Below, in pieces: positions 757 through 64,000 of a stretch of 64,000 nt of DNA. The notes beneath the pieces are model-generated. The model saw nothing but the letters and a program-made list of their open reading frames with translations, did not search any database and had not been told where the DNA came from. Made by a program: the position numbers and the translations under genes. This DNA is from Amoebophrya sp. A120 (lineage: Eukaryota; Protista; Dinoflagellata). The stretch covers positions 3,787,838 through 3,851,837 of the forward strand of contig CAJINV010000002.1 in the NCBI GenBank assembly GCA_905178155.1, written 5' to 3'. Position 1 is the first letter of the stretch. Each line of letters opens with the position of its first letter.

Positions 757-3700
757 CTTTGTCCGAGGGAACAAACAGCGTGATTGAGTTCGATAACGCG
801 ATGAGCAGCCGCTTTGGCAATCGCCGCACCATGTCCTGGCGACTCATCACGTACAGGGAGCAGAAACCGTCGGAAACAAGGGACACCGGGAGGAGCCGGC
901 TGTGCAGGATCTCCCGATGCCCGAAGAACTGGTTCGAAGAGAGGATCCCCACTTGCAGGAGCAGTTTTGCTATGCATTGCAAAAGTATCGCATTCGTACA
1001 AATGCATCACAAATTTCCTCAGCGTGAGAAATGAAATTTGTAATGCGGATTTACCTCAAGAAAAGAATTTGTAATGCATGATTGCAATACGAGTGCGATA
1101 CTTTTGCACAGGATATTTGCGTGCTCGATTTTCGTGTTTTGGTCGATCGTCGTACTGTTGAAATGGATATCAAATGCAAAAATGTCTGGGTCTGGAAGGT
1201 CGGAACTTGTCATGCTAAATCTGAATCACGCAAAAATCTGTGTTGCATGATTACCAAATGCTGTCCACTTTTGTTCAAGTTGAGAGGCAGTTTCTCATGC
1301 AGGATACGCATGACAGTGATCTCACGGAATCTCTTATGCTAGGTCCTCCATTACAGATCATATGGGGCATGGAAAACCTGCATGACAAGTCGCGCAAAGT
1401 TCCAGACCCAGACATTTTTGCATTTGATAATGGAACCGGGCGGTTTTCGAAGATGAACTCGCTGTCGTTGTTTTTTTCTCCGATGATGTAGTTGCTGATT
1501 TCCCGTTGCTCTCTTCGTCTTCGATAATTTTGCCGATTCCCTTGGTCTGCAGCCATTTTTTCACGTCGATATTTTCCATTTGCACTTTTTCCTCCTGGAT
1601 CAAGTGTAAAAAACGTGTCTGGGTCCTCGGGGGAGGTGGAACCTGTGTTGCGTGTCTGGCACTCCTGTAAAATCTGTATTGCGTGACCAACTACAAAAGC
1701 GCGAGCTCTTTTGTCATGCACGAATGCAGCAGTTTCTTTCGAATGCGCGCCACGCATGCGGAAGCATAGCGTCCTAAAAGCATGCCATGCTTGGCTGCAC
1801 TGAGGAGTATGCTCAATCATCGCGACTCAGCATCACAAGCTTATTGCAGACCCAGACCTATTCGCACTGGATATCCTGTAAAGTCGGCTGCAGCTTGTTC
1901 GTCGTCTCGCTCTATCCTGAGTAAAAACGTCCCCACCCCAGAGTTGTCATGCAGATTTGCAAAGACAGGAAGACTTCTAATGCGCATCCCCATGAGAGCC
2001 ATTTCCAATCGTGTTTTGGAATTTGTGATGCTGTGAACAGGATGAGCAGATGAATCTGTGATGCGGCTGCACTTGCTAACCTGCACTACACTGCGGAGCG
2101 CAACTTATCATGCGTGACTCACAAAACTCTTCGGTTTGTGTTGCAAAATCCCCATCCTGACTCTGGTGTGGGGATGTTTTTACTCAGGATACGCCCTCGA
2201 TAAAGTTGACCCCTCTCGTCAGGGTTTTCCGCGACACGCGGGTTCTGGAAGCGTTTTGCGGGACGCCGAGTGATCCATTCCCGTGAGATGGGGAACCGCC
2301 GGAAGCGGTGCTGATTGGACTGTCGTTTGATGTTACCCCACCACCGGTGGTAATCAGCGCCGCGTTAGAAGAAGAACTCGGGCTCGTTTGCGCGGATCCT
2401 AGTTGCACCCGGTTTGTGTTTATCAAAGTGAAAAAAGCCCTCTCCCCATAATAAAAACGGAAATTTCTGTTGCTGGATTTGCGTACACAAATCGGCCCTG
2501 TATCGCAGCGAGCGCTTGTAGGGATTTCCTAAGCCTGATTAGGTATGAAAAAGGCTAGCGCTCAGGCATGCCGGACAGCTTGGCAGCAGGCAAAAGCGCA
2601 TGACAGGTTGGCTGCGGAATGCGCCACACGCCTCCCATTTGCCTCATATGCAAGACAAAGCTGATCTGTGGCCACAAATCAGCATCACAAATTTCCACTG
2701 TGAGTACTTATGGGGAGGGGGGATTTTTTCTCACAGATAGTGTTATCGACCACCTCCCAACTGCTGTACTCAAACCGCTTGCCGTCTTATGCCAGAAAAA
2801 AACTGTGTAAGTGTAAATCTGTGATGCAGAACATGCAACAGAGTTGCGCCTGTCATGCCAGGCAGCCATGCAGTCCTCTTTTCGTGTGTGTTTTCCCTTA
2901 CTAACCACACATGACAGGTTTTCTCTGTCATGTAGAGCAAATTTGTGATGCTGTCAGCCAAAGAAAGTTACACTAACACAGTTTTTTTCTTGGATACGTC
3001 TACCCTTTTCCTCGTGCGGCGCAGACAGATCTCCCGGAGAATCAATAGACGGCCCGACCGAACGAAAAAAACGGAACTCGGCCGCGTGTCCTGCAGCTGC
3101 ACAAGTTTCAGTCCCCGAACGCATTCCTCGTTTAAACAGTTCGCCAAAGCTGCGATCTCCGTGTTTCCGGTGTTCTGGGGGAAGTAGTGGCAGGCGTTGA
3201 GAAAGTGGGACCGTTCCTCCACCATCTTTTTGTGGGATTGCCCAATCCATTCGTCATAGTCGTGCTTCCGTAAGCAAAGTAGCTCCGTTTTTTCCGCGGT
3301 GAGAATCGAAGCGGCCCTGGGAGCGTTGCTTTGCAGTGCAAGCTCGCCGAAGCATTTTCCCTGGTCAAGAAAAACCTCCGTTCGCCACGATGTTTTCTCC
3401 GCGTTCTCCGGCACCAGCACGCCCACGGAACCAGTGAACACGATGTAAAAGGTGTCACCAAAGTCCCCGAGCTCGAAAACGTACTCTCGTGGCTGGTACT
3501 CGCGCAGCTCCAAGTTCTTGCACAGCCCCCGCTTTTGATGTTCCTTCAGAGCTTGAAAAAATTCCAAGACCTGCACGTACTGCACGATCGCGTCGATTTG
3601 TTGCTCTGTCCGCTTTGTCAACTGCAAATCTGCCTCGGTCTGGAAAGTTGTGATGCAGGTCACTGAATAATAACCACACGACTGTAATGCGCCGCCGAGC

Positions 3701-4971
3701 ATGACAAGCTTTTTCATGCTTCTGTGTTGCGTATTCCGCATGAGAAACTGCGTGTTTGCATGACAGGCAAGAGGAGCTTTTGGTTGCCACGCAATACAGA
3801 TCCAAGAGTCATGCCAGACTAGCATGACAAATCTCACAATAACCAAAACATATTTGCAGTCCATACGCTTCTCCGGCTGCTGCTTGCAGGCCTCGCGGAC
3901 ATACTGGGTTTCCGACTGGATCCGGCTCGCCGCAATGGGTACAACTACGGGAGTGGTGCCCGCGGCTGCTGGAGACAGACCTTTGCTCGCGTCGGAGGAT
4001 GTCGCATTTCCGCTTCTTTCTCCCTCAATAGGAGTTGGAGCAGTGCCCTGATTGTTATCTCCTGGTTGATCTACTTCTGCGGGCGGTAATTTGTCCGTGA
4101 TACTGGAACGCCGGTGCCGCATGAAGCTCGACCGGCGGTTCATCGCAGTACCTTGGCTCTGCGTGGAAGGCGTGCCGAGCGAAGAGCTGGCCTCCACCAT
4201 CTGCAGACCTTGTTGCACCGCGGACTTGCGCAGACTGTCTTCCACTTCTTTCTCCAACGCATTTAAGTCGTCGCTTTTGCCCTGTGACGGCGAGGCCGGC
4301 GCAGTAGCTCTACCGAGAGATGATGAGGAGATAGCGGGGGCCGTGGTTCTGCTCGGACCGGGTTGAAGGACCACCCCGGAGGTCCTTATGGTCCCGGCGG
4401 TCTGATGACCTAGGTGCCCCTCTGCCGGCTGGATTTCCTCCTCCAGTTCGGCGATGGAGGACACGGGTAGGACTACCCCGGAAGAACCGGGCAGGCCACT
4501 GGTTCCCGCGATGAAGCTTGCTTTGTTCGGGTTCGGCCGGGTCGATTTCAGGTCGAACACCGATTTGCGGTGCTTGTTGCGCGGCGCGGGAACGGCCGGG
4601 GTCTGGTGGAAGGAAGCCGTCGTCGGAGGCGCATCAAGTGCCGGGCGAAGTTCTTGTGCCGGCGTCGTCGTCGCTGCGCGGTCGCTTGTCCGGTCTGTTG
4701 TTGCAGCTCCCGCGGTTGCTGATGCCGCCTCTTCGCTGCTGGACTTGCTGGAAGCGGGGTGGGACGAGGAAGACAGCTGCACCAAGTTCGCTGCAACGGC
4801 GCGGAGGTCGACGGCATTGGAGCTGCGGCGGCCGCGCGGCGGTGGCGGATTTTGTTCGTCCGGGGCGCGCGGCTCTGCCCCGCGGGGGCTACTGTGCGCT
4901 TCCGCGGTCGCGTGGGTCGTCGCTGCTAGCGTTCCGGCCGGGCCGGGGTCGGGAGGGTCGGTTGGAGGCAT
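757..4971 (-). CDS. Cyclic-nucleotide-binding domain protein (two cNMP domains, long low-complexity N-terminus), multi-exon, 3' end beyond window start
   Basis: ATG at 4971. Motifs YVFELGDFGDTFYIVFTGSV, CFGELALQSNAPRAASILT and a second split domain (VFFVRSG...VGILSSNQFFGHREIL). Intronic elements at 3616-3865 (repeat cgctt), 2788-2996 (cgtct), 2421-2739 (gtgtt), 1913-2191 (cgctc/cgccc), 1598-1873 (tcctg), 1168-1429 (atgga), 971-1115 (tttgc) and <1-756. Removing element plus one repeat gives a continuous frame: PEKR|TEQQID, RKRVD|GKRFEY, VVDN|TNRVQ, FIEG|ETTNK, TLQ|EEKVQ, ARFH|FNST, IEHA|KLLLQ. Confidence 0.88.
971..1115. mobile_element. Introner family E, representative copy (about 145-155 bp)
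   Basis: TATGCATTGCAAAAGTATCGCA ... TGCGATACTTTTGCACAGGATA; repeat TTTGC. Relatives at 10382, 22882, 29332 and 60676. Confidence 0.9.
1168..1429. mobile_element. Introner family A, representative copy (most abundant; about 250-280 bp)
   Basis: TIR TATCAAATGCAAAAATGTCTGGGTCTGGAA ... TTCCAGACCCAGACATTTTTGCATTTGATA; 5-bp repeat ATGGA on both sides. Other copies include 9611, 10918, 21449, 23162, 23530, 24143, 28522, 31210, 32034, 44576, 50163, 54816, 59526 and 62228. Confidence 0.93.
1913..2191. mobile_element. Introner family B, representative copy (about 260-320 bp)
   Basis: TATCCTGAGTAAAAACGTCCCCAC ... GTGGGGATGTTTTTACTCAGGATA; repeat CGCTC/CGCCC. Relatives at 9996, 17119, 20682, 24499, 27441 and 54492. 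Confidence 0.9.
2421..2739. mobile_element. Introner family C, representative copy (up to about 320 bp)
   Basis: TATCAAAGTGAAAAAAGCCCTCTCCCCATA ... TATGGGGAGGGGGGATTTTTTCTCACAGATA; repeat GTGTT. Relatives at 11242, 29945, 30301, 36912 and 45382. Confidence 0.9.
2788..2996. mobile_element. Introner family D, representative copy (about 210 bp)
   Basis: TATGCCAGAAAAAAACTGTGTAAGTGTAA ... TTACACTAACACAGTTTTTTTCTTGGATA; repeat CGTCT. Relatives at 11755, 30940 and 51109. Confidence 0.9.
3616..3865. mobile_element. Family A introner hidden in frame inside the 697-aa ORF
   Basis: Repeat CGCTT at 3611-3615 and 3866-3870, degenerate family A ends. Element plus one repeat is 255 nt with no stop in the minus-strand coding frame. 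Confidence 0.88.
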
Positions 4972-7900
4972 GTTTGGCTTCGCGCCTTTTGCGGAGGAAG
5001 GAGAGGGCTGTCGTTCTGTCTCTACTGGGAAGTAGTGCGGGGGATAACAACGCGACCGCAATTAATCTCCGATGGCTACACTCCTGCGTGGGAAAAAAGA
5101 CAGTGCGCGACCAACCGCATCCTTCGGTGCTTACAGCAAAAAAAACGAAAGGCGGGCCGCGCGCGGGCACAGCGCGCAATGAGCAAGACAGCACCCCCCC
5201 CCCCCCNNNNNNNNNNNNNNNNNNNNGGGGGGGGGGGGGGGGGTCCCACCGGGAGCAGCACCGCGCGGCCCTTACCAAGAACACCGCCGCGATGGCCCCG
5301 CTCGGGCGCCGGGTCTTAAACATCACCGCGAGGCGTCTTAGTCATGGCCGTGCGCCCTCTTTCGATCGTCCGGGAGCGAGCTACCGCGCCCGGCCGGCGT
5401 GGCGTGCGTGGCGCCCCAGCGGGCACCCGCTTGGAAATACGGGCGCCGGGCGCGCTGCCTATGACGTTGCGCCCTCTATTGATCGGCCGAAGCCGATCGC
5501 GCTGCCTTCCTGTTGGGGGGGGGGGGGGGGAAGGCTCACACAGATTTGCCGCGTCTGCCGTTGTCAGGTGTGATGACCGGCCTCCAAAATCGATTGGAAA
5601 ACCGCTGTAGAGGATCCCTGATGTGTGATTCTGCGCCATCTTTCCATTGGCTAATGCCAATGATATTGGTACCCACACAGTTTTACCCAAGTTCAAAAAA
5701 TTTGAAAAAGTCATCACGTGCACACATTGCCAAAATACTGAAAAATCAGCCACATGCAAGGGCTCCACGTGTCCGACGCGCTGCCCCGGGCCCATTTTCT
5801 GCACTATATTCCTCATATGGTAGACATTAACCAGCTCTATTCACCATTAAAAAATTCGAAAAAAATTCCAAAAAAATTGAGGAATGACAAAACTCGTAGC
5901 AATTGAGTCAAATGACAAACCAACTTACAAAATGCGCACAGTTTTGAGCTCTCTTTTTATTGGCAAATCCATACTAAAGTAGTACTAGCAAAATTTCCAT
6001 CATCCTCAGAAAATTCAAAAAAATCCAAGAAGTCAAATAATTGCTTTTCGGAGAATAATCCTGCAAATTAGCAGAAAAGTTGTACAGGTGTGGGCTTCTG
6101 GCAAATTTTTGATGCCATATATACATTTATTACATTACATTACAATGCACGAGCAGAATTTTTGTGCGCGGTGCACTTATCCAAAAAAAATGCCTCCCGG
6201 CAATTTTTGTTCGGTGGACTGATTTACTTTAGAAAAATTGTGGAAATGCACAAAGTCCATGCGCAGTGGTTGTATATAGATGCGATCTCCCTGCTTTTTC
6301 ATTATCAAAAAGCCCCCAAGTTGAGAACTAGGCTGATTTGCGAAATTCTAAAAAATTGGAAAAATGCCAATGATTTAAGTTGTGGAGATTCTGCCTATCT
6401 AACTGACTAAAACAGTGCTTAAGGAACGCGATTCGTATCGTTTTCTATGGTTGTTCGATCCGCCAACGCGAGCAAAGCGCTTCCTGTGAAGTTTTCTCAG
6501 TTCTAAAAACATATAAAAACCTTTGGGGCCCTGCTTTGGTGGGATAAGATGGCGCATCTGAAGAATCCAGGTAGAAGCTCCCTTAGGGGCCCGCTTTGCG
6601 ATGCTTGTGCGCACTGTTTTCATTGGCAAACACCGACCAAAACAGCCATGGCAGCCCCCTTCTTCCTTTTGTAAAATTCAACGAATCAGATCGGGCCACT
6701 TCTGGGATGACCAGGCTCCGGAACCCGATGCGGAATACCGTCGCCCGGGGCCCCGCCTATAGCTTTGCGCCCTCTTTCCATCGGCCGGAACCGATCGAAT
6801 CCGCCAAGGCGGCTTCGGGCTCGTTTGCAGAAGTCCCCGCAGATTCCGGCGGCCCGGAGATAATGGGGCGCCGGCGCTTCGTGGTATGCCCCCGCGCGGG
6901 GCGCCCTGCCTGCGCGGTTGCGCCCCCTTTCCATCCTCCCGGAAAGCCAGAAAGCTAGGCGCGACAGACACCGTGGGCCGGCGGATCCGTTTCGGCCCGC
7001 GCACCGGGCGAAAAATACCGCCGCGGAAAGTCCGACGGATGGTCTTGCGGCCTCCCCCCATCGGGCCCGGGCCGATTAAGTTCTCCCTGGTGGCTCCCGG
7101 CGTTGTTTGGAACATCTTGAAAGACGGGTCCTTTGGCGGTCGCGGCCCGGCGGCAGGCCTCGGCGAAGAATGCTGCCGCCTGGCGCGCTGCGTCTGATTT
7201 TGCACCCGGAAGCGATGCGATTTTTGCAAGGGCGCGCCGTTCTTTGACGGAGTTGCCCCCCTGGCGGTTTGAGGTAGTGCATCGCTCTGTGCAGTGTAGG
7301 TTTGAAGCCTGAGAAGTTTCGGCGAGAGGATCAGCATCAGTTGCCTGCCCGCTTTTCATTTTTCCGCCTAGAAGGCTCTTGCCGTCGTGTTTTACGTCGT
7401 TCTTCTACTATTGCAGTTTTGCTTTTGTGAAAAGGACCCGGGCACCAGGTCTGCCGGTTCAAAATTGGCGCCGTCTGTCGGTTCAAAATTGGTGGACCGA
7501 GGCACAGCAAGGACGAGACATTTTTTTGTTTTGTTTCTGATCCAATGTTTTACGCTTTCAAGGTAGTTCGAACGTTCTTTTGCTTCGTCGTCTATTTTGG
7601 CTTCTGTTGTGGGGTTCTTGTCGTTTTGTCTGAGTTCTTCCTGCATCGTGTTGCTATCAGTCTGACGTGTGTCACGACTACTTCTGCGCGGCGCTTGGTA
7701 CCAGAAAAAAAGCGAGAAGCAGTAACGTGGTCTACTTCTCTGTATGAAAAAATTACTGCATGAGGCCGGGATGATCGGCGAGTGCCAGCAGCTTATTTGT
7801 GTCAACACCCTTAGAATTATTATCGTCCAGTAGCTCGTCGGGGTCATCTCTATCTTAGAGAAAGTAGTTTTAAAAGGAATTTTTGGAAGTAGGAGCTGAG

Positions 7901-8136
7901 CTAAATTTACTTTTTTTCGTTGAATAAAGAACTCAGGCTAGTACTAGATGACATCTGCAACATGGCGTCGTTATTTTTATTGCCGTTTGTAGCTGCCCGC
8001 CCCGTTTGCGGTCGTGGTCAAAAGCAGCCGCGTTCCACGTCTTCGCGTGGCAATTTCATCCGTGATGAGACCACGGCTGAAGGATTTTATTTACCGGGGG
8101 AGGAGCACAACGTCCGTCCCCAGTAATCCGGGCAAC

Positions 8137-11100
8137 ATGGAAGTCGCCGAGGATAGTTGTACCCACATCCAGCGGGACGAGGGGCCCAGTGCCGACTGGT
8201 GTTGCGAGGCAGGGGCGCAAGAACGAAGCAGGCAGAAGGGTTGTCTTGGAAGAAACACTAACAGGTGGAGCAGGGGGCACGGATCGAAGCAGCGCCGAAG
8301 AAAGATGAACAAGAACCCCATACTGCAACTGCACCTCGCACTGTCGTGCGCAATGAAATCTTACAAGCGCGGCTCTGCGAGGTCGAGAACCAAACACGGA
8401 ACAGCAACAATGAAGACCATGTGCAGCAACTTTAATAAAGAAGCGAGCGAGATGAGAGCAAGACCACGAGCGGCGACGATGAGGCCGCCCGATAAAAGCA
8501 ATTCCTTTTTGCGGCTGGGTAGAAGTTGGCCGGTACAGCTGCGGCTCGTCTGGGAACTGTGCCTGGTGGTGGGGGTGCTCCTCTCCTGCTTCTCGTGCTT
8601 GGTGGTCATCGTCTTTTTGCTCCCTACTTGTTCCCCGCCTCCGTTCGCACTTGCGATGCGCTACATGTCGCTGCAGAACTGCAGCCGCTTTCTGCTCGAC
8701 GAGGATCTCGCCTCTATGGTATCGCAAGAAAATAAAACGAAAATTTGTCATGCGGGCTCCGCAACAAGGGTGGAAAATTTAAATTTTCTCATCCTAAAAT
8801 CCCCTATTCAGCAAAACGACCAGTACTGATCTTTCCACGCTCCACATAACAAGATCTCACTTGAAATTTCTTAGACGATACATGCGTGCGTCCCTGCAGT
8901 ACTTGTTCGAAAAAATCCACCGGTTCCGGCTGGTAAACGATTACTACCTACCGGGCAAACTCGGGATCAACGATCTGTATCGGGAGGGTGCGAGCCAGGG
9001 CGTGATCTTTGCTAACTTTGACGAGTGGCGGTTTCGCCATCTCTTCGACACGAATTTCACGGACGTAAATCTGCTCTTCAACCTGGATCTCCGGTCCCAT
9101 TTCGTCCCGATCCGCAGTCTTCTGACGCAGTTCACGCACACCCGCCCGATCGGGCGATTTGGGAAGGCGGAAAAGGAGGACGCACTGTATCAACTGCAAA
9201 AGTGTCTGGGTCTGGAAGAATGCCAGACTTGTCATGCAGGTTTTCCATAACGCATGAGGTCTACTATGTAGGACATAGCATGACAGATNTGTCTGGGTCT
9301 GGAAGAATGCCAGACTTGTCATGCAGGTTTTCCATAACGCATGAGGTCTACTATGTAGGACATAGCATGACAGATTCTGTGAGAGGTCTACCATCCCTAT
9401 CCTGCATGAGAAACTGCTTCCCGATATGGTCAAAAGTAGACAGCTTTTGGTAATCATGCAACACAGATCTTTACATGATTCAGATTTAGCAAAAAAAAAA
9501 TAAAAAAATTTAGCATGACAAGTTGCTTTGTTCCAGACCCAGATAGTTTTGCATTTGATACACTGAAGAGCTTGACAACGTACGACGCGACGACTGCGAA
9601 CCCGGACCCCTATGCATTGCAAATGTGTCTGGGTCTGGAAGATTGCGAAGGTTCTCATGCTAGTTTGGCATGACTCTGAACTCTGTATTGCGTGGCCACG
9701 AAGACCTCCTCTTGTCTGTCATGCAAAAACGATGTTTCTCATGCGGAATACGCAACACAGAGTCACGAGAAAATGCGTCATGCTTGGCGGTGCATTACAG
9801 TGAGCTTTCTGCTCACTGACATGCATCACAAGTTTCCAGACCCTTTCATATTTGCACTGGATAACCCCGAAACGAATCCAAAACTGTACATGAACAGCTT
9901 CTACCCGGCCGCAACGTCACATTTCGCACACGGGGAGGAGGAGATTCTGTTGCATGCATACGAGAAGAACCACCGAATAAACTTTAAAGTCCGCGTATCC
10001 TGTGTAAAAACGTCCCCGCCCCAGAGTTGTCATGCAGATGCGCAATGACAGGAACATTTGTAATGCGCACCCCCATGATATTATCATATATCATGGGGGT
10101 GGCAGTGCGCACCCCAATGTGATAAGCGTTTCCAGTCGTGTTTTGGCATTTGTAATGCTGTAAACAGGATGAGAAAATGGCTTTCTCATGCGGCTTCCCT
10201 TGCTAACCACCACTACACTGGAGATGGAAACTTGTCATGCACAACTCCCAAGGCCTGGATATTTGTGTTGCAGTTTTGCTAAACTCGACTATGGGGTGGT
10301 GGCGTTTTTACATAGGACACCGCGTAGGCTTCGAACACCACGTGCTCGAGAAGTTGCTGAAAATCGACCGCAGCGGAGTCGTATCCTGTGCAAAACTACC
10401 GTACTAGTATGAATTGCATTACAAATTTTCTCAGCATGAGAATTTTTTTCAAATTTGTAATGCGGGTTTACCTACAGAAATTAATTTGTAATGCGTGACT
10501 GCGATTACTACTAGTACGATACTTTTACAATGCATAGGTCGCCGCGGAATTTTGGCTCCGGCGCCGCGTGCACTGGAACTACCTATCGTAGAAAAAAAAG
10601 CTGTTTCACTCTATTATTAAACTTGTGATGCGTAGAATGGAACGCCGAGGTATTTGTCGTGCTACACACGCAAAAGCAAGACCTGCTTGGATATCCAGCC
10701 GCGTAAGTAGTTTTTCCGCGGCCCTATCGGAAATGCACGCAGAACAAGCTTTCTTCGTCGTGTGTAGCTGCGAACTTATGAAGTTGCAAAACTTGCAAAA
10801 AATTCTTGCAGAGTGAAAGAAGACTCTTTTCCTCCGATACCACCTACTGACGGTCTACTGCGCGCGGAGCCGGGGCCCGTTGTGGAGGAGCGCGCGGTTT
10901 CGAGAACTGCCGGAAATTATCAAATGTAAAAATGTCTGGGTCTGGAAGATTACCAGGTTTGTCATGCACATTTTGCATGACTCCTGATGTCTGTGATGCA
11001 TGCCCTAGCATCACAGATTTTGTGAGGGCTTCTTGATGCCTATACCGCATGACAAATGCTCTCTCCGTGTAGCAAAACTTGGGCTCTCTTTGCTGCCCAT

Positions 11101-41493: not shown

Positions 41494-43112
41494 TTTAAAA
41501 CGACAGCCCCGAACAGAGTACATCGACATCCATCAAGTGCGGCGCTTTTGCTTTGTACTATTCACGTGTGTTGTATTTATACACGGGGGCAGAAGATGAT
41601 AGCATCGCCGACGACGAGCTCCACCCTCATGTGGTCGGGGAGGACCACTAGTAGAGCTGTTAGCGAGATACTAGTTCGGTAGTTTTGTAAAAAAAAAGCA
41701 CAGTGCTCCTCCCACAGCACAGGCAGCAGCATCCGCTAGAGTGCAGGATGCACGATGAAAGTGGCATCAGGCTTGTACAAGCCGGCCACAGCCATCGAAA
41801 GACCGTTGTATAATCAAAAATCAACACGACGCTACTAGTAGCGAAGACGCATTGATGCTGCCATCAGGAAAATATAGGATCAGAGCCCGGCGGAGCGCCC
41901 TAAGTGGGTCGCCGCCCCCAGTCAGGCGGGAGGCCCGGGCAATTTTTCCAGGAGCCGTGTTCTCATTTCTTGCGACGTTCGTCGCTGTTGCAAGGCGAAT
42001 GCAGACGGTAGTTCTGCACACTCTTGCTCGTCTGTCACTTGTTCATCACCACTGGAGCTGCGAAGCGATTATACGAAAACAAAAACGATCCTTGCCCTGG
42101 CAAATCCTGGGTTTTGCGTGATATCTTGCTTCCCACAATTAATGTTTGTCCGATTGAACAACAAGCTTCACCCTCCGTCGCTGAAGCTGCTGCACCCACA
42201 TGTTAAAAGCTGCACTGACACAAAATGCCTGCGTTGGCAGCGCTGGTGAACTGCTGCTAAAGATCTTTTACAGAGAGGACGGAGGTGGCAGCACGACAGG
42301 CTATACATAGTCAGATCCGAAGGACATCAGCCTCACAGTGGAAATGTTGCATGAAGGACGTTGTAGTTCTGCTGACAAGTAGTGCAGACGTTGTGTGGAT
42401 CTACTTTATTCAGTAGAGAGCGCCGCTCTGATTGCGGCTTCATGGCAGGGCCAATGCCTCGTGCGTTTAGACCTACAACGCAAGTGATAGGACATAGGAG
42501 CTAAGTATGATCCGGAGGTCCTAGTACTTATGATTTGTCCTGAGTTATACGTTCTCGATATTGATAAACGGTGAAGTTGAAAGTTGAAATTCTCACGAAA
42601 CCGATAAAATTTGCTCCTGTGTTGTTGATTTCAAGAGAGCCACTACTTAGGTGGGGGCGTAGTCACAAGAAAACATCACGAGGAGGTAGAGTAAAAAGGT
42701 ATAAAAGTACTATGTTCTTCATCTGTTGATACTGAAACAGTTCTTCTGCTACGCGTGGAGGTTCTGCACCGTGCACAGCTTGATTAGAAGGTCGCAACAG
42801 AAGTACATAGAAGACTACTGGAGATCATTAATGAATGGAACCTCGTGCTGGTGAGGACGAGGTCGTGTTCCTGACCACCACCTATCCGCTCACGACCCGT
42901 CGAGTTATTTTCCAATGAACGCGTCGCCGATGCCCTACTTTTCATGTCGCTCCGAGCACAAGGTACTACATGAAGATAATCATGCGCCGTTCGTCTTTTT
43001 CCACGACAGGATCAAGATGTGCAGCCGGTCCACGACGACCTGAAGAGGAGTTGTGCTACTTCCAGTTCCGATTCTTGTTTTACATTAACGTTACAACCTA
43101 CGGGAAAGAAAA

Positions 43113-53100: not shown

Positions 53101-56100
53101 GCTGTCAGCAAGGCACTTGCAACTCGGGGCATCACTTCGAAGACGATGGCTCAACCAAAAACTGCGTCGTGAATACCTGCAAATGCGAGCACGGAACGCC
53201 GTTAACCGGGCCGCCGACGTGCGTCGACCATCAGACGACGGTTGGCTGTCAGCAAGGCACTTGCAACTCGGGGCATCACTTCGAAGACGATGGCTCAACC
53301 AAAAACTGCGTCGTGAATACCTGCAAATGCGAGCACGGAACGCCGTTAACCGGGCCGCCGACGTGCGTCGACCATCAGACGACGGTTGGCTGTCAGCAAG
53401 GCACTTGCAACTCGGGGCATCACTTCGAAGACGATGGCTCAACCAAAAACTGCGTCGTGAATACCTGCAAATGCGAGCACGGAACGCCGTTAACCGGGCC
53501 GCCGACGTGCGTCGACCATCAGACGACGGTTGGCTGTCAGCAAGGCACTTGCAACTCGGGGCATCACTTCGAAGACGATGGCTCAACCAAAAACTGCGTC
53601 GTGAATACCTGCAAATGCGAGCACGGAACGCCGTTAACCGGGCCGCCGACGTGCGTCGACCATCAGACGACGGTTGGCTGTCAGCAAGGCACTTGCAACT
53701 CGGGGCATCACTTCGAAGACGATGGCTCAACCAAAAACTGCGTCGTGAATACCTGCAAATGCGAGCACGGAACGCCGTTAACCGGGCCGCCGACGTGCGT
53801 CGACCATCAGACGACGGTTGGCTGTCAGCAAGGCACTTGCAACTCGGGGCATCACTTCGAAGACGATGGCTCAACCAAAAACTGCGTCGTGAATACCTGC
53901 AAATGCGAGCACGGAACGCCGTTAACCGGGCCGCCGACGTGCGTCGACCATCAGACGACGGTTGGCTGTCAGCAAGGCACTTGCAACTCGGGGCATCACT
54001 TCGAAGACGATGGCTCAACCAAAAACTGCGTCGTGAATACCTGCAAATGCGAGCACGGAACGCCTTTAACCAGGCCGCCGACGTGCGTAAGCGACGGTGT
54101 GACGATTGGGTGTCAGCAAGACAGTTGCAATTCTGGGCATCACTACCAGGACGATGGCTCAACCAAAAATTGTGTGCTGAATCTCGCGAACCCAGTGTTA
54201 CCGCGCGGGTTTGGTATGCATTGCAAATCTAGTATCGTACTACCTAGTAGTAATCATTGCGTTACAAATTTCATATTTGTCAACTTGTTGGTGAAAAGTG
54301 GACTACGTGTAAAAATGCTGATTTTTTATTCCCTGCACATTTCTGTCATGCGAAGATATTGCAACTACTACGAAATGAAACTACGCAGGCGATAGTACTT
54401 TTGCACAGGATGTTCGACCTCCATCTGCAGCTGGCGGACGGTGTCACGGACGTGGCTGCGGCTTTGCAGACCTTGAAAACGGCTGTGAAAGTATCCTGTG
54501 TAAAAACGTCCCCACCCGAGAGTTGTCATGCAAATCTGCATGCTGAAAATGTTTCTCATGCGGAGCCCCATGAGAAGCATTTTCCAGTCATGTTTTGGGA
54601 TTTGTCATGCTCCAATCAGCATGATATACTAGATCTGTGATGCTGCTGAGCTAGCTCAAACAGCACTACGATACGAGTCCACATTTGTCATGCAAAACAG
54701 CCGAAGCTTGTGGATCTTGACTATGGGGCGGGGACGTTTTTACATAGGATAGAAAGCTACGGTCGGCGAGTTTTTCCAACAAACCGCGGGCATCGCGTTG
54801 ACACCGGAACAAATCTATCAAATGCAAAAATGTCTGGGTCGTCTGGAAGAGTATACACTTGTCATGCGGGTTTTCCATGACCCATGTGGTCTGGAATGCG
54901 GGACCTAGCATGACAGACTCTGTGAGGTCTTTGCCATGTGTGTCCTGCATGAGAAAGAACTTCGTCCCAACTGGGTTGACAGTGGACAGCTTTTGGTAAT
55001 CATGCAACACAAGTTTTCGCAGGATTCGGACTCAGCATGACAAGTTCCAACCTTCCAGACCCAGACATATTTGCAGTTCATAAAATCGAAAATGTCGAAA
55101 TCACGTTAAAAGACCCGAACGCAGTGTGTGTCCCGCTCAAATGGTACAGTCTCAAACGTTACAACAGAATAAATGGAAATGATCTGTGATGCAAGAAGTG
55201 CTGGATCTAGCCAAGCCTACGCCCACAGGGAGATTGCGCATGACAAGTGTAGTTTGAGTCCCAAGCCGCGCTAGAACCTGGCGAAATTCGTAATGTAGAG
55301 AGTGGAACGCTCTGCGATTCTATCATGCTCGTCATGCAACACAAGTTCCAGATGCTATTGTAACGCTTGAGGTTGTAATACCTGAGTAGGTTATACGGTG
55401 CCGCCGAATGTTGAAGTCGAAATAACCTTCGGCGTGCGCGTGGACAGCTCCGATGTGGATGAAATCAATGCCGTATGCATAGCAAATATCCATCTGGGTG
55501 TGGATTTGTGATGCGAGAGGTGAAGGACAGCAAGATCTGTAATGCCTGAGTACGATTGTTACCAATTTTGAATATGTCGTACAGGAAGGCAGTTTGTCAT
55601 GCGTTCTACGCTTAATTCTGCAACAAGCCTCGCGCAACTTCTGATGCTGTTATGCCGTGTAAGTGGCTACTCTGCGACGTGAGTATCAGCAACACAATAA
55701 ATTTTTCCCAGACGTCCACGGATATTTGCAGTTGATATGCCGCGTGGGCTCCCGATGCGGAGTTGTCCCCGACCGGGACTGAGGTGCAAGCGTTAAATTC
55801 GGCAGTAAAGAAAGCGGTCAATGAGGACCCGGCTATGAGTAACCAAATGACAGTCCCCGACACGAATGCAGTGCCAGGAACGGTCATCGTTACAACAACG
55901 ACAACCACGACGACCACGCCAACGCTTCTCCCAAGGGGCTTCGACCTGAAATTAGATCTCCCAGCCGGTGCTGACGTCGCGACTGCGCTGAGTGACCCTG
56001 TGTTGAGAAGCAGTGTGGCGGCCGGTCTGGTCGAATATCTAAACGCGAAACAGGTCGGGGTGACGCTGACAGCTGATCAGATTGCGAATTTGCAAATCAC

Positions 56101-59100
56101 GGAAAAGGAGGGACTCCTGGGTCAATTCGAAGTTCATTTTGATGTTGAGATTGATCCGGCGCATGTATGAAGTGCAAAAGCTTATCGTACAAGTCGGATT
56201 TGACAAGTTCTTCAGTGTTGTGTGACAGCACGATCTTTGTTTTTTCACCTGAAAATTCGCATGGCAATTTCCATTCCCGCATTTGAAAAAATGTGTTACT
56301 ACGGAAAATACTTCCTTACTTTTGCAATGCACATTAGTACTTCCTTACTTTTACTTTTTTACGGTGATGCTTTTGCAATGCACATTAGGCTGGACAAATC
56401 GATTTCGCCTGGGATCCTCATGCGGCTTTGACCGAAGCCGCGATGCAGAATTTAGGAGCAGAGCTGCGGACTGCCGTTAGCAACAATGCGGCTAACATGA
56501 GTATGAGTATATCAGTTCCCGATACTGACGCAGTGCCAGGAACGGTCATCGTTACAACAACCACAACCACGACGACCACGCCGACACTGCTACCCAGGGG
56601 CTTCGACCTGAAACTGCAACTTCCAGACGGTACTGACGTTGCGACTGCGCTTCGTGATCCTGCACTGAAAAGCAGCCTGGTGGCCGGGTTGGTTGAATTT
56701 TTGAACGGGCAGCCGGGTGGGGTAACGCTGACAGCTGACCAGATCGAGAATTTGCAAATCAGGGAGAAGGAGAATGCCCAGGGGCAATATGAAGTGCTTT
56801 TTGATATTGAAGTCGACCCTGCGGATGTATGCAGAGTGAAAGTTTTTTATCGTGCTGGGGCGAGAAGTTCTGCAATGTCGCATGACAAGTTTTTGCTTTC
56901 TATGTCTGAATCTGCATGAGAAACAAGGTCATGGCGCGGGGACAGAGTCCCCGCGCTGCGACCTTGCGGCGAAGAAGGGCCACCCGCGGCGGCTTTTCTT
57001 GCCCATGATGCGGCAGGTTTTTTTTTTGCGACAGAACGGGGTAGCTTGGCGCTCGTGGTGCCGGCGCCCCCCCTGGAAAAATGCGCCTTTTTCTGCGCCC
57101 CTGGGCGGGGCGCCCCCCCCAAAGGACTACCCACGACCAACCGAGGGCGCGGCCGTCCGGGAGGTTGTTTTCCCGAACCAGGGCGCGCGGGCCTGTTTCT
57201 GCGCCCCTGGGCGGGGCGCCCCCCCCAAAGGACTACCCCCGACCATGCGAGGGGGGGCGCGGCCACCTTCCTGGAGCCTGTTCTCCGAACCAGGGCGCAC
57301 AGACCTGTTTCTGCGCCCCTTGGCGGGGCCCCCCCAGCAGGACTACCCACGACCAAGTGAGGGGGGGGCGCGGCCTTCCTGGGGGCTGTTAGTTCGCTTC
57401 GCACTCCCGAATCAGGCCGCGCGGACCTGTTTCTGCGCCCCTGGGCGGGGCGCCCCCCCCCCAATGAATAGGCAGCCAATCTTTGGCCCCCGGGGTCGGG
57501 CCTGACTCTTGAAAAGCGGCCCCCGGGGTCGGGTGTTCCTTTTCCGAAGTCAGGTGGGGAGCATGTTTTGAGTTGTGCAGGAGGTTTTTGCCGATTCGGG
57601 TCGTGTTGGATACCCCCGAACAGGGGTCGGAACATACCCCGGAACACACCCCAGAACACACCCCGAAACACACCCCAGACCATGCCCCGAAAGCCACTTT
57701 CCGACAGTCAGGTCCGGGGTCGGGCCAGACTCTCGAAAAGTGACCTCCGGGGCCGGGTGTCACTTTTGCCGAGTCAGGTGTGGGGTATGTTTTGGGGGGT
57801 GCGTGAGGAAATGGCCGAGTTAGGTCGTGTTTGATACCCCGGAACAGGGGTCGGAACATACCCCGGAACACCCCCCGAAAACTCATTTTTGGGCAGTTGC
57901 TGCAGTTTAAATAGTAATTTCATTTTTACTTCTGCAAAAATTTTCAATCGCAGTACTAATTTCTAGTGCGATAGTACATCTTTTGCAAATGCATACCCTG
58001 CTGAAAAAGTCGACTACGCCTGGCATCCCGATGTGGCTTTAACTGCAGACGAGATGGAGACTTTGGGAACAAAGCTCCAGACGGCCGTTAGCGCAAATGC
58101 GGCCAACATGACCACGCAAGTAACTGTACCTGATCCCGCCGATGCTGTAACAGGAACGGTCCTCGTTACAACGACCACCACAACCACTACCACACCAACA
58201 CTGCTACCCAGGGGCTTTGACTTGAAATTGAACCTTCCAGCAGGTGTCAACAACGTTGCGAAAGCGCTGGAAGATCCCGTGCTACGAAGCAGCGTGGTTG
58301 CGGGTGTATTGGAATTTTTAAACGGGCAGCCGGGTGGGGTAACGCTGACAGCTGATCAGATCGCGAATTTGCAAATCAGGGAAAAGCCGGGGGTGTCGGG
58401 GGAGTTTGAAGTGCTTTTTGATATTGAAGTGGACCCTGCGGATCTATGCAGAGTGAAAGTTTTGTCGTGCTGGGGCGAGAGGTTCTGCAGTGTCGCATGA
58501 CAGATCTGGTTTTTATGTGTGAATCTGCATGACAAATTTCCAATTTTTGCTTCTGCAAAAATTTTCAATCGCAGTACTAATTTCTAGTGCGATACGACTT
58601 TTGCAAATGCATACCCTGCTGAAAAAGTCGACTACGCGTGGCATCCCGATGTGGCTTTAACCGCAGACGAGATGGAGACTTTGGGAACAAAGCTCCAGAC
58701 GGCCGTTAGCGCAAATGCGGCCAACATGACCACCCAGGTAACAGTACCTGATCCCGCCGATGCTGTAACAGGAACGGTCCTCGTTACAACGACCACCACA
58801 ACCACTACCACTCCGACACTGCTACCCAGGGGCTTCGACTTGAAGTTGAACCTTCCAGCAGGTGTCAACAACGTTGCGAAAGCGCTGGAAGATCCCGTGC
58901 TGAGGAGCAGTGTGGTTGCGGGTGTATTGGAATTTCTAAATGGGCAGCCGGGTGGTGTAACGCTGACAGCTGATCAGATCGAGAATTTGCAAATCAGGGA
59001 AAAGCCGGGGGTGTCGGGGGAGTTTGAAGTGCTTTTTGATATTGAAGTGGACCCTGCGGATCTATGCATTGCAAAAGTTTATTTATCGTGCTCAGGCGAG

Positions 59101-62100
59101 TAGAGGTTCTGCAGTGTCGCATGACAGATCTGATTTTTATGTGTGAATCTGCATGACAAATTCCCAATTTTTGCTTCTGCAAAAATTTTCACACGCAGTA
59201 CTAATTTCTAGTGCGATACGACTTTTGCAAATGCATACCCTGCTGAAAAAGTCGACTACGCGTGGCATCCCGATGTGGCTTTAACTGCAGACGAGATGGA
59301 GACTTTGGGAACAAAGCTCCAGACGGCCGTTAGCGCAAATGCGGCCAACATGACCACGCAAGTAACTGTACCTGATCCCGCCGATGCTGTAACAGGAACG
59401 CTTATTGTCACAACGACCACGTCCACAACCACCACGCCAACACTTCTACCGAGGGGCTTCGATCTGAGCTTGAATTTGGATCTCCCAGGGGACGGCAGCA
59501 CTGATGTCGCGACTGCGCTGAGTGATATCAAATGCAAATATGTCTGGGTCTGGAAGATTCTGAGACTTGTCATGCGCGTTTTGCATAAGACACGATGTCT
59601 GTGATGCATGCCCCAGCGCCACGGACTTTCTGAGGGCTTCTTGATGCCTATTCCGCATCACAAATTATGCCCTCTCAGCGTAGCAAAAATTGCATTCGCT
59701 TTGCTGCTCATGCGATACAGACTTTTTTGGAGTCCAAATGTAGCATCACAAGTTGCATTTTTCCAGACCCAGACATATGTGCAATTCATAAGTGACCCCG
59801 CACTACGAAGCAGCGTGGTTATATGGAACTGTCAGGATCGAAATTGACAAAATCGAAAAACTTGTGATGCATAAAATGCATGACGCGAAATACGTGTGTT
59901 GCAGAACAGGCAAGTGAGGCCGATTGTGAGCCTGTTTGAGGTTATAGCTCGAGCTGCTAGAGCAGCATGAGAGAATCAGTCTTCTTTGCCTAAACAGCAT
60001 TACAAACTGGATTTAGGCACCACCAGAATTTGTGATGCGCCACTTAGAAACTGGGTTCGAACTGGAATCCATCTTATGCATGACAAATCCTTTCGATTTT
60101 GTCAATTTCGATTCTGACACTTCCATAGGTTGCCGGTCTTGTGAAGTTTTTGAACGACCAGCCGGGAATGGGTGGCGTCACCCTGACCGCTGACCAGATC
60201 GTGAATTTACAAATCCGGCAAAAGGAGGGGGGAGAATCGGGGCAATTCGAAGTGCATTTTGATGTCGAAATTGATCCGGCGCATGTATGCAGTGCAAAAG
60301 CTTTTTTTTACTACAACTCGGATGTTGACGAGTTCTGCGCTGTTGCATGTAGACGCGATCTACCTTGCTTTCTTACTGGAAAAATCTGCATGATTTTATT
60401 CTGTTCTTGTTCCGTAAAACTAAAAACAACTTTGCAAATTGCACTTTAAGTGCAACTCTCATCAACTCGTGAGAAAGCCCGTGATGTGAAAGAAGTGCTT
60501 TTGGACCACTGCACACCATGCTGATTCAATCAACTCCGCCTGGGATCCCGCCTCGGACTTGCCAGAAACCGCGATGCAAAATTTGGGAGAAAAGCTGCAA
60601 ACGGCCGTTAGCGACAATGCGGCTAATATGAGCACTAACATCACGGTGCCCAGCACAGCTGTAGGCGGAACGGTCTATGCATTGCAAAAGTATCGTACTC
60701 GTGTAAATGCATTGCAAATTTCCTCAGCGTGAGAAATAAAATTTGTAATGCGGATTTCGATTTACCTTAGGAAAAAGATTTGTAATGCAAGTCTTTATAC
60801 GAATGCGATACTTTTGCACAGGATACGGTCATCGTGACAACGACGACCACTACCACCACCACACCAACACTGCTACCAAGGGGCTTTGACTTAACACTGC
60901 AGGTGCCAGCGGACTCCTCCGACGCCGAGATCGACGATGCGCTGCGAACATTGCCGCTACGCGACGCGATAAGGACGGCAGTGGTGCAGTTTTTTGTATG
61001 AAAGAGGCCAGTGAAAAGAGTGACTCGATCTGCTGGTGACAAGGCCCTTCTTGTGCAAAGAGGTTGTTTAAATTTGCCACGCAGCTTCAAGTTCAATCAT
61101 CTGTATAAAGAAAAATTGCCTCGACGAAGAAGATTCATGAAAAGTCAATGAATAGTCTTTTTGCAGTTGATGTTTTATTCGTCCAAGCTTAGGTTGTAGA
61201 GGACCTCCATGCAGTAGATCGATACATTTTTTTAGAAAATGCATAGTCTGAAAATAAATTGAACGACGTGACTCTGACGGAGGAGGAGATAGAAAATTTG
61301 CAAATCACCAAAAAGCTCGACGCCAGCACCCCTCCCACGGTGGAGGTGGAAGTGACTTTTGCGGTCCGCATTGACCCCGCGCATGCGAGTGCAGTAAACG
61401 AGGCTTGGGATCCGGACGCTGTTTTGGGGGGCGAGGCGCTGGAAACGTTAGTCGAGGCAGTGAGAACCGCGTTTAATGCCATGGAGGAGGATCCTATTAC
61501 CGGTCCTAGTATAATCACGCTGCCCGATATGGAAGCGTCAGAATCGAGATTCGCAAAATCGAAAAACTTGTGATGCACAAAACCGATGCCAGTTGGGGCC
61601 TCAGTTTGCAAGCGGCGCAAGACAAATTGCGGGAGCACCCAAATCCAGTCTGTGATGCTGTTTGGACAAAGAAGAGTGCTCCTGTCATGCTACTCTGGCA
61701 GCACATTGCATACCCCTAAACAGGCTTGAAGTCGGTCTCTCTTGCCTGCTCCCCAATACAGGCCTGCAGTGCCCTACATTTTGCGCATCACAAATTTTTC
61801 GATTTTGTTGATTTCGATCCTGACAGATCCATACCCGAGGCAGGTGCTGGTACAACAGTGGTACAGCCAGTGATTGTGACCACGACCACAATATGCCTTG
61901 CAAATACGTCTAGGTCTGGAAGTATGCAACTTGTGATGCTGCATTTGGATTCTACAAAAATCTGTATTGCATGAAAAGCAAAAGAGGTCCAGTTTTTGCC
62001 ACGGCGAGAGGGCATTTCTGATGCGGTATAAGCATCAGGAAGCCCTCACAAAATCTGTGATGCTAGGGCCTGCATCACAGACATCAGGAGTCATGCAAAA

Positions 62101-64000
62101 TGTAAATGACAAACCTTGCATCCTTGCAGACCCAGCCATATTTGCATTTGATACACAACTACCACTACCACGACCACCACCACGACCCACCCGTTACTAC
62201 CCCGGGGTTTTGATCTGCAGCTGAACATATCAAATGCAAAAGTGTCTGGGTCTGGAAGAATGCAACTTGTGTGTGATGCTGCATTTGGAAGTCTAAAAAA
62301 TTTGTGTTGCATGAGCAGCAAAAGGAGAGGGCATCTGTCATGCGGAGTAGGCGGGAAGAATCCCTTTAAATAATTGTGATGCTAGAAGGGCATGCATCTG
62401 AGACATCAGGGCTCATGCAAACCGTGCATGACAATTTCCAGACCCGGACATTTTTGCTTTTGATAGAACATTCCCACAGCTAATGTCGCCGATGCGCTCG
62501 CGGATCCGGACTTGGCAAACGCAATGATAGGACAGTGCACAACTCCCCCTCCCCCTCATTGGGATGGTATCCGCAGCATTGCAAGTTCTGGCAGAAATGT
62601 AGCTTTTGCATGACAGACAAATTTACGACTGATTGTAGTGCTGTTTCGGCTTCGGGAATCTGTCATGCATAGTAGTGGCACAAGGCAGAAGGTGGAGTTG
62701 GTGTTTTGCATGAGAAATGAGAACGAGGGGGAGTTGTGCAGTGTCATAAACGAAGGCCGCGGTTGTGAAATTTTTGCAGACCACAGCGGGGTTGAGCGAC
62801 CTCACTATGGAACAGGTGGAAGACTTAGAGATTAGGCCGAAGGAAGGGACGCAACCACCCAACGTAGAAGTGGAAGTGACTTTTCAGCTGCGGGTATTGT
62901 GAGGAAAAGCGTCCCCAAGAACCCAGAGGAAAGATTTGGGGATTTTTTCGCTACACAAACCTAGAAGTTTTTGGAGTCAACACGCATGACAGTTTATTTG
63001 GCGTCGGAGTGTAAAAGCTGTGTTTCGTAAAAGTGCATCCACAATAAATTTCAAAACACCGCTAGAAAACGTTTCTTATGGGGCTGCGCATGAGAAACAC
63101 TTTGAGATTGCAGGTTCTTCGCGTGGCAAGTTCATGGGGTTTTCTGACGTTTTTCCTCAGGATAGCGGGTTGAGCCAGACCTGGTTGACCAGGTCAATGC
63201 AGTTTGGAATCCCGACGAACCGATGGCACAGGGTAGCGACGCACTGGCTGCGTTGGGGAGTGCGCTCAAAGAGAGCGTGAATGAGAACGACGAGCTAAAC
63301 ACAGACATGACGGTGCCGGAGACTGGGGGTGTGGAAACAGTCATTGTGACAACGACGACAATATCCAGTGGATAATGATGATGTCGTGCTCTTTGGGTCT
63401 GGAAAATAAATGAACTTGTGATGCAAGCCTGGGCAGGATGTCTGTGCGCACTGCAAGACGCAACCAAGCATGACAAGTTTCTCAGCTCCTATGTTTTATT
63501 CTTGCGTATAATTCCGCATCGCAGGAGTGGCAAACTGTGTTTTTTCCTGACAGGCATTCTTCGTGACCATATGCGTCTTCACAGCAAATGCAGGATCATG
63601 CCAGACAAGCAGGACAAAAGATCTAGCCTTTTTCCGGACCCAAAGATCAATATTTCCGAATCCATAGACCACCACGACGACCCTCGATCCAAACAGTTCC
63701 CCACCGCCCACGCAGCTCCGGGCCTTGCAATTTGGTCTCAACGCGGGGGAAACCAAGACAACCGAGGAAAGCCAGGCGCTGCTTGCCAGCGCGGATTTCC
63801 GGAATGCGATTGTGATCGGGTTGCGAACGTTTTTCGTGGAAAAAAATCCGGAATTGAGTGAGGATTTATCGCTGGAAGACTTTCACCCCGTGGACATCAG
63901 CTTGGCGAGTGGCGGTGGTGCTGCGTCTGCTCTGTCGTCGTTCATACAAATGAAGCAGAAAAAGACTGGTCTGTGGTCCAGCACGACAACACGGGGCAGT
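50144..64000 (+). CDS. Very large repetitive surface/mucin-like protein: TSP1/spondin-like module, 16 x 48-aa Cys-rich repeats, then about 8 SEA-like modules separated by poly-Thr linkers; both ends incomplete
   Basis: DCTGSWS...C...TRKY...NGGAPC; repeated TTTTTTPTLLPRGFDL...LRSSVVAG...LTADQI.NLQI...FEV.FD.E.DP. Elements at 50163-50445, 50834-51074, 51109-51322, 51367-51638, 54215-54412, 54492-54751, 54816-55082, 55127-55395, 55474-55737, 56166-56384, 56828-57995, 58445-58613, 59063-59237, 59526-59790, 59822-60127, 60286-60515, 60676-60825, 60997-61245, 61528-61833, 61892-62153, 62228-62465, 62528-62748, 62895-63164, 63362-63666. The frame stays open to the window end. Confidence 0.8.
51864..54167 (+). 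repeat. Coding tandem repeat, 16 x 144 bp (48-aa, 6-Cys unit)
   Basis: Unit NCVVNTCKCEHGTPLTGPPTCVDHQTTVGCQQGTCNSGHHFEDDGSTK. Central copies appear identical and edge copies are diverged. Confidence 0.95.
56924..57917 (-). mobile_element. Second Helitron-like element of the same family nested in an introner
   Basis: Same termini on the + strand (CAAGGTC...GCGCGGGGACAGAGTCCCCGCGC ... GCTGCAGTTTAAATAGTAA). Inserted at GCATGAGAAA^TTTC; sister introns 58445-58613 and 59063-59237 show the empty site. Confidence 0.75.
62528..62748. mobile_element. Introner family I
   Basis: TAGGACAGTGCACAACTCCCCCTC ... GAGGGGGAGTTGTGCAGTGTCATA; repeat AATGA/AACGA. Possible relative at 30656-30883. Confidence 0.8.

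Follow-up and report, generated by a model that had tools for sequence, protein, structure and literature searches.

The window analysed here, a 64,000-nt stretch of the Amoebophrya sp. A120 genome (contig CAJINV010000002.1, positions 3,787,838–3,851,837, forward strand), holds genes interrupted by short elements with terminal inverted repeats (TIRs), which begin with TAT, end with ATA and are flanked by a 5-nt direct repeat. The elements behave as non-canonical introns, a reading supported by their exact absence, together with 5 nt, from assembled transcript contigs. Their removal very probably happens at the RNA level, and the excised segment is likely to run in one fixed register for all elements, from 1 nt before TAT to 4 nt after ATA (N-TAT...ATA-NNNN). 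The elements match the Amoebophrya A120 introner elements, a class already published. In the published description, the inverted repeat of A120 introners consists of TAT followed by seven variable positions and a run of three or more A, direct repeats of 3–5 nt lie at the borders (5 bp in the legend of Fig. S19), and non-canonical introns (NCIs) average 240 nt (Farhat et al., 2021; PMC7789003). A first-pass annotation had linked the window to Amoebophrya introners; the identity of the end motif makes that link closer than was stated there.

The elements and their absence from transcripts

An unbiased scan for inverted ends in the window returned 71 TAT...ATA pairs of 100–450 nt, of which 41 carry a perfect flush 5-nt direct repeat and 55 a repeat with at most one mismatch; none of the 71 has a flush repeat of 4, 6, 7 or 8 nt. 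In three mononucleotide shuffles, each done within 1-kb blocks, the scan returned 5, 1 and 2 pairs, and the repeat was absent from all of them. An end profile combined with manual curation, in which boundaries were corrected, yielded 88 complete elements. Nine of these sit in a segment duplicated at 100% identity across an N gap and are excluded from all counts. Of the 79 distinct elements that remain, 78 lie within rebuilt frames; partial copies end at 756 and start at 48288. The earlier estimate of about 80 elements of 145–330 nt with 5-bp repeats is borne out, with 73/78 in this length range (median 266). The other five measure 362, 956, 1015, 1168 and 2374 nt, and the four longest contain nested inserts.

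In the transcript direction, 75/78 elements start with TAT and 69/78 close with ATA, and the direct repeat is perfect in 45, has one mismatch in 20 and two to four mismatches in 13. The end profile shows T, A and T at 0.99 (the seed set having been picked for TAT) and A at positions 11–13 at 0.89–0.99. By similarity the 78 fall into 11 multi-member clusters (the largest with 21) and 18 singletons, with a best pair 95.4% identical, and families are inserted in both orientations relative to transcription. A GT/GC-AG intron can be drawn in some register for 4/78 and in none for 74/78, as the annotation had said of most junctions. The ends of elements 16921 and 47901 are uncertain; both were retained in the counts.

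A pattern scan of metagenome contigs added at least 164 loci (72, among the matches listed, all from assembly JACKZZ01), of which 156, totalling 529 kb, were analysed. Detection permitted at most one change across the two TAT ends, and 166 of 214 locus elements were given an orientation by a codon model rather than by transcripts; these 166 and the 78 window elements make up the 244 used for pooled end statistics. No orthologous window exon appeared among the top matches to the loci, and a pattern scan of viral contigs gave no match. A subterminal motif, TGTNATGC, occurs in 70/74 window and 277/284 locus elements, with a peak 30–40 nt from the element ends; 14.8 kb of exons contain no copy of it.

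Removing each element plus 5 nt leaves the frame open at 78/78 genic junctions, with rebuilt frames of 843, 280, 1170, 946, 230, 617 and 2323 uninterrupted codons, and restores the motifs FVDVGA/NQGAY and PEKR/TEQQ, as had been claimed. The first-pass annotation had allowed one junction at which the frame was not restored; this exception disappears. When 0, 3, 4, 6 or 7 nt are taken out with the element instead, every gene with more than one element loses its open frame; gene D, with a single element, is uninformative. The frame test sets the extra length only modulo 3; that it equals 5 is shown by the repeats and by the contigs of transcripts. For element 47901, a left boundary at 47901 or at 47910 is in frame.

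Transcript evidence consists of assembled contigs from runs X3–X6 of one sample, which show the majority form and hide minor splice forms. At 22/22 junctions examined (of 78), exon-joined contigs lack exactly the element plus 5 nt. Contigs of X3–X6 skip all 12 elements within 27250–32660 in this way, and 33296 and 32635 (the latter through shared record positions) are likewise skipped, so that 14/14 elements of gene C are accounted for. In gene B, record 9 of X3 lacks 889 nt (278 + 280 + 331) and 1254 nt (158 + 273 + 266 + 273 + 284), both exact for eight elements in total. Elements in both orientations are excised alike. The X3 contigs end 200–350 nt beyond stop codons and their depth varies by gene (33.5, 11.2), as expected of transcripts. 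Raw RNA reads of X9 and X10, which bear the same species label, leave the genes uncovered and come from a genotype that differs from the window.

Excision from DNA before transcription, like that of ciliate internal eliminated sequences (IESs), would yield exon-joined contigs from element-free templates, but we regard it as very improbable. Inverted and direct repeats are features of DNA transposons, the RNA label of X3–X6 is an automatic guess, and rare element-free DNA could escape because contigs drop rare forms and 15 of 1746 joints of the DNA-like run X1 were listed. The X1 contigs, however, carry the elements, crossing exon-element borders at an even depth of 40–50, and one spans 22126–22451 unbroken. 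The register and the invariant T described below follow the direction of the transcript rather than the orientation of the element, and RNA-seq compared with the genome has validated 66,565 A120 introns (Farhat et al., 2021; PMC7789003). We infer that a cell with a single nucleus could not retain elements once it had excised them. The annotation had likewise placed DNA excision second.

Register of the cut and candidate catalysts

Where the two copies of a direct repeat differ, the transcript reveals from which copy each base was taken. Elements 29612–29877 (repeats AGATC and AGACC; joint 29610 to 29882) and 31210–31468 (CGAGG and CGAAG; joint 31208 to 31473) belong to the same family in opposite orientations; in both, the joint is seen in 4/4 runs (“both” = 1) and base 4 of the left copy is kept, placing the cut after base 4 or 5. 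The fold z-score of 29612 is −4.5. At element 22126–22451 (GCGAG and GCAAA), left-copy base 3 and right-copy base 5 are kept, a contig piece starting at 22455 without mismatch, so that the cut falls after base 3 or 4. Jointly the three fit only a cut after base 4, and hence an intron of the form N-TAT...ATA-NNNN. Seven other mismatched-repeat junctions with transcript data are compatible with this cut, making 10 in all.

Repeated protein motifs constrain five further junctions. PRGFD at 54215, a motif present in seven other units, would be lost if the cut followed base 5, as would DPADA at 58445 and 59063 and SSVVAG at 59822, so that these four require base 5 from the right copy. At 56166, registers 0–1 give a stop and 2–3 turn DPAH into DPAQ, which assigns base 4 to the left copy. 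Intersecting the three decisive transcript junctions with these five protein-motif junctions gives the fixed register, in which we have considerable confidence. All nine predominant non-canonical classes of A120 in Table S4 of Farhat et al. have T in second position (GT-, CT-, AT- and TT-) and none begins or ends with TA (PMC7789003), although that table may be shaped by aligner preferences.

It is improbable that removal occurs in RNA with a cut that wanders within the 5-nt repeat, the fixed register being an artefact of few informative junctions. Three transcript junctions are decisive, contigs give the majority form, and splice sites are termed variable in the legend of Fig. 3 of Farhat et al. 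(PMC7789003); against this, none of the 10 mismatched-repeat transcript junctions and no protein-motif junction contradicts the base-4 register, and the Table S4 classes cluster on NT (PMC7789003). In the literature searched on Amoebophrya introners we found no mapped cut register, although Figs S19–S25 of Farhat et al. may show one. Relative to that literature, four points are new: the strict 5-bp duplication established by empty sites, the 1 + 4 register, a U+2 that never varies although AG is not preferred, and the resemblance to the Euglena system.

The first T (intron position +2) is unchanged in 78/78 window and 166/166 locus elements (244/244), whereas its mirror A is changed in 10/244 (Fisher p 0.002; p ∼0.06 for each set alone). 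G at +1 occurs in 94/244 against a 29% background (p 0.001) and a purine at the first base of the next exon in 157/244 against 54% (p 0.0005); these two are inseparable because the positions are repeat copies. The A at −7 is kept in 241/244, which is suggestive only, and a branch point there is a guess. At the base-4 register, GT-AG is not enriched (2/78 window and 6/166 locus elements), and nearly all elements lack the pairing of a GT/GC donor with an AG acceptor.

The elements are most likely excised by a modified spliceosome to which GT and AG no longer matter. It would read N-UAU-(C/G) as the donor (U+2 and A+3 as in GUA), use the A at position −7 as branch point and choose the acceptor from its distance instead of from AG; pairing in the terminal hairpin may assist in bringing the ends together. 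To this relaxed spliceosome we assign an even chance, on the basis of U+2 and A+3, a near-complete spliceosome without detectable U1 and a precedent in Fritillaria. Nearly all spliceosomal proteins were found and the U1 snRNA was not (Farhat et al., 2021; PMC7789003), and in Fritillaria the U2 spliceosome removes such introns (PMC13326754). A review leaves the mechanism of removal in Amoebophrya open (PMC11282704).

Several points weigh against this picture. All transcript evidence comes from contigs of a single sample, labelled as RNA by a guess, and one transcript junction (22126), taken from the boundary of a contig piece, sets base 5 of the register. In eight of its ten changes the mirror A has become G; a U-G pair is thereby retained, so that a hairpin model accounts for the asymmetry at U+2 equally well. 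The excess of G at +1 over the mirror position is not significant (p 0.07), and G+1 is indistinguishable from a G that opens the next exon. AG occupies the last two positions in 17/244, 7.0% against a 6.5% background, so that nothing of an acceptor check is visible. Conservation of the A at −7 does not exceed that of the mirror T (3 against 7 changes, p 0.34).

We think it somewhat less probable, yet a serious possibility, that a spliceosome-independent system reads the paired UAU/AUA ends of a hairpin, cuts 1 nt before and 4 nt after them and ligates the exons, a mode of removal also suggested for the nonconventional introns of Euglena. The layout resembles the Euglena code 5′-N3 CDG...CH′G N5–6/R (the slash marking the cut), with its paired triplet and longer 3′ spacer (PMC12501133), and the purine preference at the start of the next exon, the lack of an AG preference, the removal of both orientations and the exact removal of a 1015-nt nested composite all fit such a system. 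Most elements fold into end-to-end hairpins, the three terminal pairs having a mean probability above 0.5 in 54/74. As a variant, the system could be a precise form of SOS splicing with RTCB-type ligation, SOS splicing being triggered by the pairing of inverted repeats (PMC12779559). No sign of stem selection at the RNA level was seen, however: G-U is not in excess over A-C in the terminal stems as transcribed (49 against 46), and folds of the sense strand are no better than those of the antisense (45/74, p 0.11); the z-scores of this 74-element folding analysis use only 8 shuffles and are rough. Element 22126 folds no better than shuffles (z −0.57) yet is removed exactly. ATA has become ACA, which breaks the middle pair, in 6/244, whereas single changes in CAG/CTG abolish splicing in Euglena (PMC12501133), and SOS splicing uses many sites and leaves indels (PMC12779559), whereas removal here is exact at 22/22. 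A search of Rfam gave five weak hairpin matches, all far under gathering scores, which were rejected.

The present data do not separate the relaxed spliceosome from a dedicated system. One tentative idea is that Amoebophrya acquired, separately from euglenids, an additional and exact splicing system that disregards GT and AG and measures 1 + 4 from paired UAU/AUA transposon ends. Any insertion of this family would then be removed without scar in either orientation at any 5-base target, and the 3 + 5 of Euglena and the 1 + 4 of Amoebophrya would be two solutions of one transposon-excising chemistry. Should removal prove independent of the spliceosome, a second eukaryotic lineage would possess an RNA-based system that removes transposons precisely. 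If N-TAT...ATA-NNNN holds genome-wide, tens of thousands of ‘variable’ junctions reduce to one rule; the fixed register would predict where a branch point or cleavage site lies, make accurate gene models possible and invite comparison with both the Euglena code and the relaxed spliceosome of Fritillaria. It would also account for the free spread of the elements, since an insertion site need supply neither G nor AG.

Mobility, genes and other features of the window

The direct repeat is a strict 5-bp target-site duplication, flush with TAT/ATA, because empty paralogous sites carry a single 5-mer (38647, 39914, 55991, 58296, 58157 and others). Of 325 TAT...ATA pairs in the loci, 239 have a perfect 5-nt repeat and five a 3-nt repeat; a 4-, 6-, 7- or 8-nt repeat was found in none. 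With TIRs, a short non-coding body and this duplication, the elements bear the marks of miniature inverted-repeat transposable elements (MITEs). They would have proliferated as MITEs that depend on a transposase or integrase from another locus, for which TGTNATGC is a likely binding site.

Long copies with the same TIRs that encode a transposase, which the first-pass annotation had suggested seeking, did not turn up in the window or in the 529 kb of loci, where the longest perfect-repeat element has 834 nt. Pfam searches of 22 window ORFs or exons and of 77 of the 94 long open reading frames (ORFs) in the loci, 17 having failed a codon filter, gave no transposase, integrase or reverse transcriptase. 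No transposase was found in A120 by Farhat et al. (2021; PMC7789003); A120 introners have been assigned to several transposon classes, and one TIR family contains integrase-like ORFs (Gozashti et al., 2025; PMC12130899). The statement that the removal mechanism and the mobilising enzyme are unresolved agrees with these papers.

Table 1. Coordinates of genes, elements and other features in the window (a dot marks features without strand).
Feature	Position	Strand	Remarks
Gene A, cNMP-binding protein	757..5061	-	continues off the left; 843-codon open frame after removal; PF00027
Gene A elements (7)	971-1115, 1168-1429, 1598-1873, 1913-2191, 2421-2739, 2788-2996, 3616-3865		a further partial copy ends at 756
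Gene B	7993..24945	+	23 distinct elements; open frames
Gene B elements 1-8	8720-8880, 13780-14065, 14116-14368, 14501-14824, 14887-15041, 15089-15344, 15423-15684, 15747-16067		
Gene B elements 9-16	16260-16469, 16542-16826, 16921-17088, 17119-17397, 17690-20063, 20098-20350, 20682-21000, 21449-21721		
Gene B elements 17-23	21791-22065, 22126-22451, 22882-23034, 23162-23429, 23530-23790, 24143-24410, 24499-24777		
First copy of duplicated segment	8754..12587	+	repeated at 13346-17092; 100% identity over 535 and 3298 nt; adjoins N gap
Duplicate elements (9)	9188-9560, 9611-9863, 9996-10319, 10382-10536, 10584-10839, 10918-11179, 11242-11562, 11755-11964, 12037-12321		
Gene C	25759..34211	+	14 elements; open frame; 14/14 skipped in X3-X6
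Ordinary GT-AG intron, 83 nt	26798..26880	+	gene C; in-frame join; only one found in window
Gene C elements 1-7	27441-28455, 28522-28793, 28999-29269, 29332-29476, 29612-29877, 29945-30255, 30301-30609		
Gene C elements 8-14	30656-30883, 30940-31149, 31210-31468, 31519-31830, 32034-32286, 32635-32903, 33296-33602		
Nested insert, 725 nt	27703..28427	.	in element 27441-28455; flanked by TGGTA duplication
Gene D	34843..35808	+	element 34884-35148; paralog with empty site, single 5-mer at 38647
Element outside rebuilt frames	36912..37234	.	paralogous empty site, single GCTTT at 39914
Gene E, large repeat protein	43089..64000	+	33 elements; 617 + 2323 codons open
Gene E elements 1-9	43751-44057, 44576-44837, 44965-45281, 45382-45642, 45941-46219, 46261-47216, 47260-47519, 47585-47882, 47901-48262		
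Gene E elements 10-18	50163-50445, 50834-51074, 51109-51322, 51367-51638, 54215-54412, 54492-54751, 54816-55082, 55127-55395, 55474-55737		
Gene E elements 19-26	56166-56384, 56828-57995, 58445-58613, 59063-59237, 59526-59790, 59822-60127, 60286-60515, 60676-60825		
Gene E elements 27-33	60997-61245, 61528-61833, 61892-62153, 62228-62465, 62528-62748, 62895-63164, 63362-63666		a partial copy starts at 48288
Nested TGT...ACA insert, 686 nt	46465..47150	.	in element 46261-47216; 4-nt CATG duplication
Drifted-repeat element	56166..56384	+	repeats GCATG and TTAGG; base-4 register reads GT...AG

The composite 27441–28455 is skipped whole and precisely (joint 27437 to 28458 in 3/4 runs), and loose contig ends at 27700 and 28432 indicate that its insert has copies elsewhere with other flanks. 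The insert at 46465–47150 has ends that we take to be solo-LTR-like (LTR, long terminal repeat) or Ginger-like; the single overlapping ORF scanned gave no Pfam match, and no further copy was found in the window or the loci. GC-rich, satellite-like arrays lie inside elements 17690–20063 (18041–19556, unit 92–96 nt) and 56828–57995 (56900–57880), and both contain a similar GGGGACAGAGTCCCCG palindrome.

The cNMP-domain exon of gene A has its closest match by identity in a protein of EP00392 Amoebophrya sp. AT5.2 (74% over 45% of the query), with one further match at 39% identity; this test of the host covers a single gene. The match to the AT5.2 homolog, P0002, breaks off in the middle of the cNMP domain and the protein ends soon after, which could be due to an unrecognised intron in AT5.2, a genome reported to have almost only canonical introns. 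A 697-codon ORF (2968–5061) continues across element 3616–3865 with no stop codon, so that ORF callers could count the element as coding.

Single exons of gene B gave no Pfam match; its C-terminal part, with a DVGANxG motif, is presumably methyltransferase-like. The repeat of 8754–12587 at 13346–17092 and a second small duplication at a single N (9289) are probably assembly artefacts, which inflate the element count by nine. For the GT-AG intron of gene C, an X3 contig piece ending at 26795 is consistent with the intron, the join itself not being seen.

Gene E is possibly one gene across the N gap at 48639–49109, and its internal repeat units supply empty sites and register constraints. Between 51719 and 54178 a cysteine-rich unit of 144 nt (48 residues) recurs in frame about 16 times, uninterrupted by elements, and some eight longer units that contain threonine runs come next; the pieces of the repeat region scanned gave no Pfam match. 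Diverged tandem paralogs of a small secreted-looking gene with its flanks (34843–37900, 38613–39980 and 41496–42032) are the source of two empty sites.

Hundreds of X9/X10 reads, mostly at 90–95% identity, pile up on 36630–36770 and 37569–37607, with a second copy near 41691–41795; the two stretches gave no Rfam match and may be a conserved repeat or a small RNA. The regions 5207–7900 and 48500–50020 are non-genic, partly repetitive and beside N gaps, and look like remnants of other mobile elements; the ORFs scanned there hold no Pfam domain.

Comparison with known systems

The elements agree with the published A120 introners in their end motif, many families, RNA-seq-supported removal and lack of an internal transposase. 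The description in Farhat et al. (2021; PMC7789003) differs in that splice sites are variable, the border is unknown and repeat lengths vary, whereas here the duplication is strictly 5 bp and one register applies; the TGTNATGC subterminal motif is not part of that description as excerpted. The TIR introners of Micromonas and Aureococcus are likewise MITE-like and derive a splice site partly from the target duplication, but they keep canonical motifs (PMC11282704), whereas 74/78 elements here cannot be drawn as GT/GC-AG.

In Fritillaria borealis, introns are also derived en masse from transposons, with TIRs, target-site duplications and diverse terminal dinucleotides, and coexist with GT-AG introns (PMC13326754; PMC11282704). 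They differ in having mostly AG-AC or AG-AT ends, a conserved U1, a U2 spliceosome shown to be necessary and a duplicated U2AF (PMC13326754). SOS splicing also removes inverted-repeat transposons from mRNA without GU-AG, but it operates in animals with many cut sites and indels, as against 22/22 exact junctions in majority-form contigs here; that paper does not mention Amoebophrya, Euglena or introners (PMC12779559).

The elements resemble Euglena-type introns in layout but are not members of that class. The two share a paired terminal triplet, fixed spacers of which the 3′ one is longer, a preferred purine at the start of the next exon and a proposed MITE origin (Nomura et al., 2025; PMC12501133). 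Euglena introns, from a lineage unrelated to Amoebophrya, use CAG/CTG with spacers of 3 and 5–6 nt, a signature that the elements, with TAT/ATA and spacers of 1 and 4, do not carry. The triplet is essential in Euglena, where circular excision products are reported (PMC12501133), whereas changes at the 3′ end are tolerated in the elements described here.

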